In this document: piece after piece, positions 3,290 to 4,003 of the stretch
Layout: the number at the start of each line of letters is the position of its first letter
Numbering within the stretch: the first letter of the stretch is position 1
Assembly (NCBI GenBank): GCA_018302765.1
Contig: JAGVZG010000009.1
Coordinates: forward strand, 1-18,646
Origin: Candidatus Woesearchaeota archaeon
Lineage (GTDB): Archaea > Nanobdellota > Nanobdellia > SCGC-AAA011-G17 > GW2011-AR18
Reading direction: 5' to 3'
Length of the DNA stretch: 18,646 bases
Made by a program: the position numbers and the translations under genes
The notes under the pieces: model-generated
What the model saw: the letters and a program-made list of their open reading frames with translations, nothing else
The model's database searches: none
Told to the model about the DNA's origin: nothing

Positions 3290-4003
3290 ATGCCTGAAGA
3301 TCAAATTAAATTAGCCTTCTCTAAAGTCAAACAAGATATACAAACCATTTTTGACGAGCTTTTAAATATAAAAAAAGAATTATCTGAGAACAAAGAGAAC
3401 GTTAAAGAAATCCTATTAAGGTTAGAAAGCATTAAAGATGGCAAAAAAAAGCAAAAAGAAGGTATTTCCACAGGAAATGATGGGGCTAATCAATCAATCA
3501 ATCATTTAATCAATCAATCAATCACTAATCAATCATTTAATCAATCAATACATCCCATAAATGCAAATTATGAAGGAATAAAGCAATTTGACCCAGAGAA
3601 AGGAGCTAATCATTTAATCAATCAATCACTAATTAATCAATCAATCAATCACTCGCAAGACGAAAAACTCAAAAATTTAACTGTAGATATAAGCAAAACT
3701 TTTTTATCTTTGTCAAAACAAGAACTAAAACTTTTTTTAACAATATATCAGTTGGAAGACGAAAGTATCGAGCCGTCCTATAAGAATTTAAGCTTAAAAA
3801 TGAATTTATCAGAACATTGCATAAGGAGCCATTTGTCCTCACTTTTAAAGAAAAATACACCAATTATTAAAAAAAGACTAAATAATCACACAAATTTGCT
3901 CTCAATTTCTAAAGAATTTAGGGCTTTAAACCTTAAACAAAAGCTCATAAACTTGTATTACGAGTCAGATCCCCACCAAAAAACACTTTTTGATGTAAAT
4001 TAA
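3290..4003 (+). CDS. Coiled-coil + repeat linker + winged-helix DNA-binding protein, 237 aa
   Basis: N-terminal heptad region (AFSKVKQDI...), INQS-repeat linker, C-terminal wHTH-like segment (LSKQELKLFLTIYQLE...SYKNLSLKMNLSEHCIRSHLSSLLKK). TTTTATAC begins 29 nt upstream. Confidence 0.8.
   Translation: MPEDQIKLAFSKVKQDIQTIFDELLNIKKELSENKENVKEILLRLESIKDGKKKQKEGISTGNDGANQSINHLINQSITNQSFNQSIHPINANYEGIKQFDPEKGANHLINQSLINQSINHSQDEKLKNLTVDISKTFLSLSKQELKLFLTIYQLEDESIEPSYKNLSLKMNLSEHCIRSHLSSLLKKNTPIIKKRLNNHTNLLSISKEFRALNLKQKLINLYYESDPHQKTLFDVN
3465..3486 (+). promoter_or_regulatory. ORB-like element (Orc1/Cdc6 origin recognition box) inside a coding sequence
   Basis: TTTCCACAGGAAATGATGGGGC: perfect dyad ATTTCC-aca-GGAAAT (3464-3478) followed by a GGGG G-string. 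This matches the established archaeal ORB pattern TTCCAnnGGAAA-n(3-5)-GGGG. Only one full copy found in the window. Confidence 0.6.
3488..3549 (+). repeat. (AATC)n tetranucleotide tract 1, interrupted
   Basis: Runs of 4, 4, 2 and 2 AATC units separated by ATTT or ACT; encodes NQSI repeats. Confidence 0.95.
3608..3650 (+). repeat. (AATC)n tetranucleotide tract 2, interrupted
   Basis: Same unit and same ATTT/ACT interruptions as tract 1; both tracts are preceded by GG(G/A)GCT. Confidence 0.95.

Follow-up and report, generated by a model that had tools for sequence, protein, structure and literature searches.

A candidate origin recognition box conserved at the DNA level within a regulator gene of Woesearchaeota and related archaea

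We describe a candidate origin recognition box (ORB) located inside a protein-coding gene of a Candidatus Woesearchaeota archaeon. The window analysed here is an 18,646-nucleotide stretch (JAGVZG010000009.1) that makes up the entire contig C23 of a 28-contig genome (1.02 Mb, approximately 28% GC). The box occupies positions 3466..3485 of the plus strand in the gene P0001 (3290..4003, plus strand), an open reading frame (ORF) whose translation is 237 amino acids long. It consists of a TTCC/GGAA dyad with a 3-nt centre, followed by AAT, a 3-nt spacer and a G run, and is read in the frame of the gene as (I)-S-T-G-N-D-G.

The box is conserved at the DNA level among the homologues of P0001, is used in two reading frames, is the same word as the boxes of the probable replication origin (oriC) upstream of the initiator gene cdc6, and has retained its proximity and polarity relative to cdc6. 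The comparison of nucleotide sequences supports an ORB-type DNA word that is under DNA-level selection and is written into a coding frame. This is the best-consensus copy of three in the genome, and it probably serves as a satellite site of the origin region that would be bound by Orc1/Cdc6. It appears to be a precise initiator-type site, conserved across approximately 80 species, and it presents a natural case of a DNA signal that overrides codon choice and is written in two reading frames. In the literature searched, no paper combines DPANN, Woesearchaeota, ORB and coding sequence, and the element is undescribed there; the same searches yielded no experimental study of DPANN replication origins.

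The box and its conservation in the host gene

The core dyad, with the TTCC and GAA motifs of ORBs, is at positions 3466-3477 and is invariant in 65 out of 65 homologues. In the genome considered here its arms extend to 6 nt (3464-3469 and 3473-3478). A G-string, GGGG, follows 3' of the dyad, as in other ORBs (3482..3485, plus strand). It is formed by the Gly codon GGG and the first base of the next codon, and this GGG-G is present in 64 of 65 homologues. The first-pass annotation, made from the sequence alone, had placed an ORB at 3464-3486, inside a coding sequence and read as I-S-T-G-N-D-G. The 22-nt string is indeed present on the plus strand at 3464-3485, in frame within the ORF 3290-4003, whereas base 3486 is C. 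The same annotation had the G-string pointing into a tract of AATC repeats, and only two bases do separate the G run from the array.

The family consensus was defined by the 15 specified positions of the pattern T-TCC-ANN-GGA-AAT-NNN-GGG-G, scored on DNA only. With at most one mismatch, it has three sites in the 1.02 Mb genome, the in-gene box and two sites upstream of cdc6, while the reversed control pattern has none. A scan of the 18.6-kb window with up to three mismatches found only one box. The pattern TTCC-N3-GGAA-N2-8-GGG has a single occurrence in the genome, which is again the in-gene box. A looser motif pattern with two mismatches allowed has 0.32 matches expected by chance within the window, and hence is a weak proof when taken alone.

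There are 89 homologues of P0001 of similar length, from genomes labelled Woesearchaeota, Pacearchaeota or Nanoarchaeota. For the analysis of conservation, 80 homologous loci were taken from species-representative genomes by a peptide pattern of the C-terminal domain, so that the presence of a box had no influence on which loci were retrieved. A perfect box is found in 61 loci, and the box has one mismatch in 14, two in 3 and three in 1; one more gene is truncated by a contig end. In approximately 75 of the 79 complete homologues the synonymous sites at the box are frozen, while control residues vary. In the S-x-G-N-x-G motifs, serine is encoded by TCC and the first glycine by GGA in all 70 cases, asparagine by AAT in 66 of 70, and the second glycine by GGG in 69 of 70. 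The codon alignment of 65-66 homologues gives the same picture of synonymous sites frozen to the box (TCC 65/65, GGA 65/65, AAT 62/66, GGG 64/65). Residues S60, G62 and G65 are codon-fixed in the 66-gene alignment, while the invariant residues T151, L155, R179 and P191 use 4, 5, 6 and 4 codons, respectively. The codon following the motif starts with G, and in almost every case T is the last base of the codon before it. At the variable middle position S, T, I, N or K is found; the codon there always starts with A, and serine in this position is always encoded by AGT. As a background, TCC accounts for 9% of serine codons and GGG for 17.6% of glycine codons in the homologous loci, and for 3.7% and 7.8%, respectively, in the genome considered here.

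The box is also used in a second frame. In locus L034 the sole box is read one frame over, as V-P-Q-E-M-K-G, and is followed by the usual period-4 tract. The sole boxes of L022 and L032 are in this frame as well, with two mismatches. In members with GACA arrays (L050, L055, L057, L058, L077) there are two tandem boxes 43 nt apart, the first read as P-Q-E-I-G-G and the second as S-T-G-N-E-G; L069 and L070 have the same tandem arrangement, with one mismatch in the upstream box. At the sequence level, these two "conserved peptides" are one 20-nt DNA word in two frames. Since the box is retained in the second frame with a different peptide, it is the DNA that is conserved, not the peptide, and neither S-x-G-N-x-G nor P-Q-E-I-G-G should be taken as a functional peptide motif. 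The first-pass annotation had mentioned an S-T-G-N-x-G peptide in front of the repeat linker of related proteins, which is correct for most of the 89 homologues, and had ascribed its conservation to selection on DNA; both the codon freeze and the use of the second frame agree with this explanation.

Other arrangements are found in single loci. L020 and L030 (approximately 3140-3185) have a second dyad without a G run 16 nt upstream of the box, and L062 (3166-3210) has two in-frame boxes 21 nt apart.

An AlphaFold model of P0001, made from the family alignment A1, consists of a long helix or coiled coil (residues 3-57), a disordered linker (58-120) and a winged helix-turn-helix (wHTH) domain (122-226). 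The predicted local distance difference test (pLDDT) score of the linker is mostly below 50, and all residues 73-119 are below this value. As the box and both repeat arrays fall within the stretch 58-120 of this model, they are predicted to encode the disordered linker between the coiled coil and the wHTH domain. A Pfam search with P0001 gave no matches. A Foldseek search matched generic ArsR/SmtB/MarR-type repressors, and no likeness to the winged helices of Orc1, Cdt1 or WhiP was seen among the matches.

The mRNA of the box region may form a small 7-bp hairpin, but its fold is no better than that of shuffled sequences (z = -0.18). The use of two frames, the predicted disorder and this z-score together place the constraint on the DNA. 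A conserved RNA structure was considered and rejected on the basis of the same z-score and of the invariant dyad arms, which make covariation impossible.

The box is followed by a tract of period 4. Array 1 (3488..3549, plus strand, found by TRF) consists of (AATC)4, ATTT, (AATC)4 and more imperfect units, and is read as N-Q-S-I repeats. A second, decayed module (3590..3651, plus strand) starts with the remnant E-K-G-A, continues as AATC array 2 (3608-3651, found by TRF) and has no box left. In the same position, relatives have a second S-x-G-N-x-G-V that carries the box (columns 190-240 of alignment A1). Runs of at least four AATC units are found in the genome only in the P0001 gene. The layout (AATC)4-ATTT-(AATC)4 is identical in a relative with 52% protein identity, where 19 of 19 codons are the same.

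The tract is a family feature. Self-identity at lag 4 in the 48 nt after the box is 0.67 across the family, compared to 0.20-0.27 at lags 2, 3, 5 and 6 and to 0.25 upstream of the box, and the median length of the tract is 43 nt. The unit depends on the clade, being AATC, ATTC, AAGC, GAGC, AAAC or GACA. The tract mostly keeps a C-A step every 4 nt, and is often arranged in two blocks of approximately four units. The array words were sought in the promoter of P0001 and at oriC of the same genome, and no repeats were found in these two regions.

The box and the origin upstream of cdc6

The genome has a single orc1/cdc6 gene (one Cdc6_C match), located on contig C15 (L002:1459-2661, minus strand). 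The encoded initiator is of the Orc1-1 type (2qby_A, E 4.5e-105; 2v1u_A, E 2e-99), the type cognate to ORBs. Its closest counterparts in the PDB are S. solfataricus Orc1-1 and A. pernix ORC1, whose structures were both determined with ORB DNA.

The canonical oriC of this genome is probably the region upstream of cdc6, a 465-bp spacer with 21% GC (L002 2662-3126, corresponding to approximately 33,214-33,678 of G000:C15). It holds two perfect 23-nt repeats that carry the box (G000:C15:33280-33299 and 33354-33373). Both copies have one change at the constrained positions, GGTG in place of the GGGG of the in-gene box. By plain Hamming distance the in-gene box and the 23-nt repeat differ at 7 positions, a level common to 57 sites; when the family-variable positions are masked, they differ at one constrained position. 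Hence the same word is present at the initiator-adjacent origin, and this holds both for this genome and for its relatives.

Further repeats were observed in the spacer. On the cdc6 side, the G-string side of the two 23-nt boxes is a GTAGGT hexamer repeat. Beyond an AT-rich stretch, a 17-30 nt repeat that resembles a degenerate box in the opposite orientation occurs three times; one of these copies is followed by GGGTGGGGG.

In 41 related genomes the consensus with at most one mismatch has 51 sites, as against 3 for the reversed control. These are mainly in the P0001-family gene, mostly with GGGG, or within a few hundred bases from the cdc6 start, mostly with GGTG. In those relatives that were inspected, weaker boxes in the opposite orientation stand on the far side of the spacer from the cdc6-side boxes, which is the classical oriC layout. 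The family consensus coincides with the first 16 nt of P. furiosus ORB1 on the G-rich strand. In Pyrococcus this ORB is bound by Cdc6/Orc1 in gel shifts, and the TTCC and GAA motifs of ORBs are perfectly conserved (PMC1904270).

The in-gene box and the cdc6-side boxes are on different contigs of the assembly, and their mutual position was established from other assemblies. In G001, a genome of the same genus, the regions corresponding to the end of C15 and the start of C23 follow each other in this order. The same-strain assembly L125, with 2 differences in 14 kb, joins the two contigs in the order dp1(-), cdc6(-), the spacer with two boxes(-), PRC, LonB, small ORFs, ArgRS, orf134, the P0001 gene and its paralogue. 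In L125 the in-gene box (plus strand) is 7.6 kb from the nearest oriC box, and is not adjacent to the initiator gene. The first-pass annotation had reported no inverted partner; this is true within the window, but two boxes of opposite orientation are found 7.6 kb away, just past the contig end.

The box and cdc6 are on one contig in 20 genomes, L125 included. The distance between them is at most 8.2 kb in 16 genomes, 10-16 kb in 3 and 32 kb in 1; in the 19 genomes other than L125 it ranges from 1.7 to 32 kb. In 18 of the 20 genomes they are on opposite strands, with the dyad end of the box facing oriC and the G run and the array pointing away from it.

The position of the origin was additionally analysed in G025, the only genome tested in this way (737 kb, single contig). 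Its cumulative GC and AT skews were uninformative, and therefore the purine skew and the coding-strand bias were used. The minimum of the purine skew (270,500) and the point where the coding strand switches (270,064) both fall on the box upstream of cdc6 (270,488-270,507), whereas the P0001-family gene is at approximately 286.6 kb. Thus in G025 the strand-composition and gene-orientation switch is not at the gene. As an aside, along G025:C1 (L088-L124, 736,802 bp) the cumulative GC skew falls and the AT skew rises almost without reversal, with totals of C over G by approximately 24,000 and of A over T by approximately 29,000, which is odd for a bidirectionally replicated circle.

Two more observations concern the neighbourhood. 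Firstly, the junction of C15 and C23 (G000:C15 approximately 35,900-37,589 together with window positions 1-438) contains approximately 2 kb of small ORFs that have no counterpart in G001. They coincide with the assembly break of this genome and are contiguous in L125. Secondly, dp1, the gene of the PolD small subunit (L125 1-2434), lies immediately downstream of cdc6, an arrangement shared with Thermococcales. No box was found in the part of dp1 that was scanned (C15 from 30,000).

Candidate roles of the in-gene box

Most likely, Orc1/Cdc6 would bind the in-gene box as a satellite site of the origin region. In this arrangement the dyad, the putative winged-helix side, would be turned toward oriC, and the G-string and the period-4 tract would extend away from oriC, along the direction of transcription. 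The box may affect replication or transcription. One possibility is that the box helps to build or to delimit the initiator-DNA complex around oriC, a role which the ORB cluster in dp1 of Thermococcales is thought to play. It could also make expression of the two regulator genes depend on whether the initiator is bound and on the passing of the replication fork. If Orc1 does bind the box, Thermococcales would be joined by a second, distant lineage in which archaeal origin regions reach several kilobases into coding DNA, and the initiator would be linked to a conserved pair of regulator genes. The period-4 tract, in turn, could reveal a new kind of origin-associated DNA element.

The element has much in common with archaeal ORBs and mini-ORBs (P. 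furiosus ORB1 and ORB2; Sulfolobus oriC1 and Aeropyrum, as cited in PMC1904270), namely, a dyad of TTCC and GAA followed by a G run, the same word beside cdc6 and an initiator of the Orc1-1 type; moreover, its consensus equals the start of P. furiosus ORB1. It differs from them in that it lies within a coding sequence, 7.6 kb from the initiator gene, is single, has no adjoining inverted partner or AT-rich spacer, and is followed by a repeat tract of period 4. The distance from the dyad to the G run is 5 nt shorter than in the Pyrococcus ORB, and binding of Orc1 to the box described here is putative.

A closer parallel is the cluster of ORBs and mini-ORBs within the dp1 coding sequence of Thermococcales. 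It is bound by Cdc6/Orc1 in Pyrococcus, as seen by chromatin immunoprecipitation (ChIP), ChIP-chip and gel shift, is conserved in Thermococcales, and has been proposed to have a role in initiation (Matsunaga et al. 2007, PMC1904270). In both cases ORB-type boxes occur within a coding sequence several kilobases from oriC and are conserved across an order. However, the host gene here encodes a wHTH regulator and not dp1, which here is downstream of cdc6, and it is located on the other side of oriC. Further, there is one box, or two in some clades, rather than a cluster; it is in a segment encoding a disordered linker, is coupled to tetranucleotide arrays and is used in two reading frames.

Several points weigh against a satellite site bound by the initiator. 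Firstly, the box is single in this genome, and in Pyrococcus one mini-ORB by itself did not support stable binding in vivo, although in vitro binding to a single full ORB was good (PMC1904270). Secondly, the difference between GGTG of the oriC copies and GGGG of the in-gene copies is consistent between the two classes. Thirdly, nothing like the neighbouring period-4 tract is found at known ORBs, and a satellite site does not account for it. In addition, as the gene order cdc6-oriC-PRC-LonB-ArgRS-orf134-gene is conserved within the family, the proximity to the origin may in part reflect inherited synteny; in G025, despite a rearrangement of the neighbouring block, the gene is still 16 kb from oriC.

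It is possible, though unlikely, that the box, the tract or both are bound by the wHTH product of P0001 itself or by its neighbour paralogue, as an autoregulatory or centromere-like site, the likeness to ORBs being secondary. The paralogue, P0002 (4377..4994, plus strand, 205 amino acids), is a weak one. It has the same plan of a coiled coil and a wHTH domain, and has neither box nor array. The BLASTP match between the two proteins across the wHTH domain has E 0.001, the Pfam wHTH matches of P0002 are weak, and the pair of neighbouring genes is kept in relatives. Sites for initiator or partition proteins are known inside bacterial and phage genes, such as the iterons of ori-lambda in gene O, parS in spo0J, and clusters of DnaA boxes such as datA; parS inside spo0J of Bacillus is a precedent for a centromere-like site near the origin. 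Like these, the box is a protein-binding DNA signal, in our case a candidate one, located at or near an origin and sharing its sequence with a coding region, often one that encodes a linker. However, the proteins and motifs are unrelated, and the lambda site is itself the origin and is bound by the product of its host gene; nothing indicates either of these here.

Binding by the wHTH product would agree with its predicted structure of a coiled coil joined to a DNA-binding domain, with a site that is single-copy, dyad-symmetric and near the origin, and with the repeat tract that travels with the gene in all clades. On the other hand, the same word marks the cdc6-upstream origins of these genomes, and in Pyrococcus this word is the ORB bound by Cdc6/Orc1 (PMC1904270), although Pyrococcus was not searched for the P0001 family. 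Moreover, the wHTH domain resembles ArsR/MarR repressors rather than the Orc1 winged helix, and neither the promoter nor oriC of this genome contains further copies of the array words.

A more speculative and rather doubtful suggestion takes the box and the tract, written as (NNCA)n, for one composite initiator element, an archaeal counterpart of the bacterial DnaA box with the DnaA-trio. The box would be the docking site of Orc1, with the periodic tract setting the register for contacts of the initiator or MCM on one strand. Such an element, dual-coded in the regulator gene across the Woesearchaeota- and Pacearchaeota-type archaea of the 80 loci, would be of a kind undescribed for archaea.

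The first-pass annotation had suggested an origin embedded in the gene linker. It is quite unlikely that the linker is a working second oriC, with the box recruiting Orc1 and the AATC tract serving as the unwinding element. What speaks for it is a full ORB with its G-string adjoining a repeat tract of 21% GC, two tandem boxes in some members, and two Pacearchaeota-type genomes where the in-gene box, 1.7-1.9 kb from cdc6, is the sole site in the genome with at most one mismatch. However, a complete canonical oriC, with inverted ORBs around a spacer of 21% GC, is present 7.6 kb away beside the only cdc6 gene, and for this reason an origin within the linker lacks support. In this genome the in-gene box stands alone, and no box of inverted orientation occurs less than 7 kb from it. 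In other clades the tract consists of GACA, GAGC or AAGC units and hence is not generally AT-rich or easy to melt. The tract is on the G-string side of the box, whereas at the neighbouring oriC the AT-rich spacer is on the dyad side. Lastly, in G025 the skew minimum and the strand switch are at the cdc6-upstream ORB, 16 kb from the gene.

It is very improbable that the tract is a slipped-strand switch for phase variation of the regulator gene and the box is incidental. In the tetranucleotide contingency loci of Haemophilus and Neisseria, in-frame 4-nt repeats shift the reading frame when the number of units changes. The same would happen here with each gain or loss of a unit, and some relatives have 9-10 perfect GACA units. 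However, the tract described here is short, its longest perfect run being 4 units interrupted by ATTT, its layout is conserved across species down to 52% protein identity, and it is always attached to the frozen box, which slippage would leave unexplained. No length variation was seen among six assemblies from different samples, identified through protein identity, in all of which the gene is identical; as these assemblies are nearly clonal, this evidence is weak. No contig was retrieved when metagenomes were scanned for array-length variants of the same species with the box and a right-hand anchor as probes. A candidate array variant, P0003, was ruled out, as it is the P0001 protein with a deletion of 33 amino acids outside the array.

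A constraint on the peptide S-T-G-N-x-G or on mRNA structure would fit the wide conservation of the peptide and the possible hairpin, but is largely refuted and hardly credible, since a rare codon is always used for the six-fold degenerate serine, the box persists in another frame with another peptide, the segment is predicted to be disordered, the RNA fold does not stand out among shuffled sequences, the invariant dyad arms contain no compensatory changes, and the word is also present, on either strand, in non-coding origin DNA.

Other features of the window

Downstream of the regulator pair there are convergent genes of a Fic/DOC-family protein (5063-5848, plus strand) and of a histidine-kinase-like ATPase (HATPase_c_2; 5873-6469, minus strand). 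In the assembly L130 the Fic gene is split into two ORFs. A 1281-amino-acid ORF (14705-18550, plus strand) encodes a T2SSE-type secretion or pilus ATPase with an intein that bears a LAGLIDADG homing-endonuclease domain. The gene at 7496-8350 (plus strand) encodes a Xer-like tyrosine recombinase. It is followed by two genes, at 8459-8743 and 8835-9116 (both on the plus strand), which form a weak pair of ribbon-helix-helix (RHH) and PIN proteins resembling a toxin-antitoxin module.
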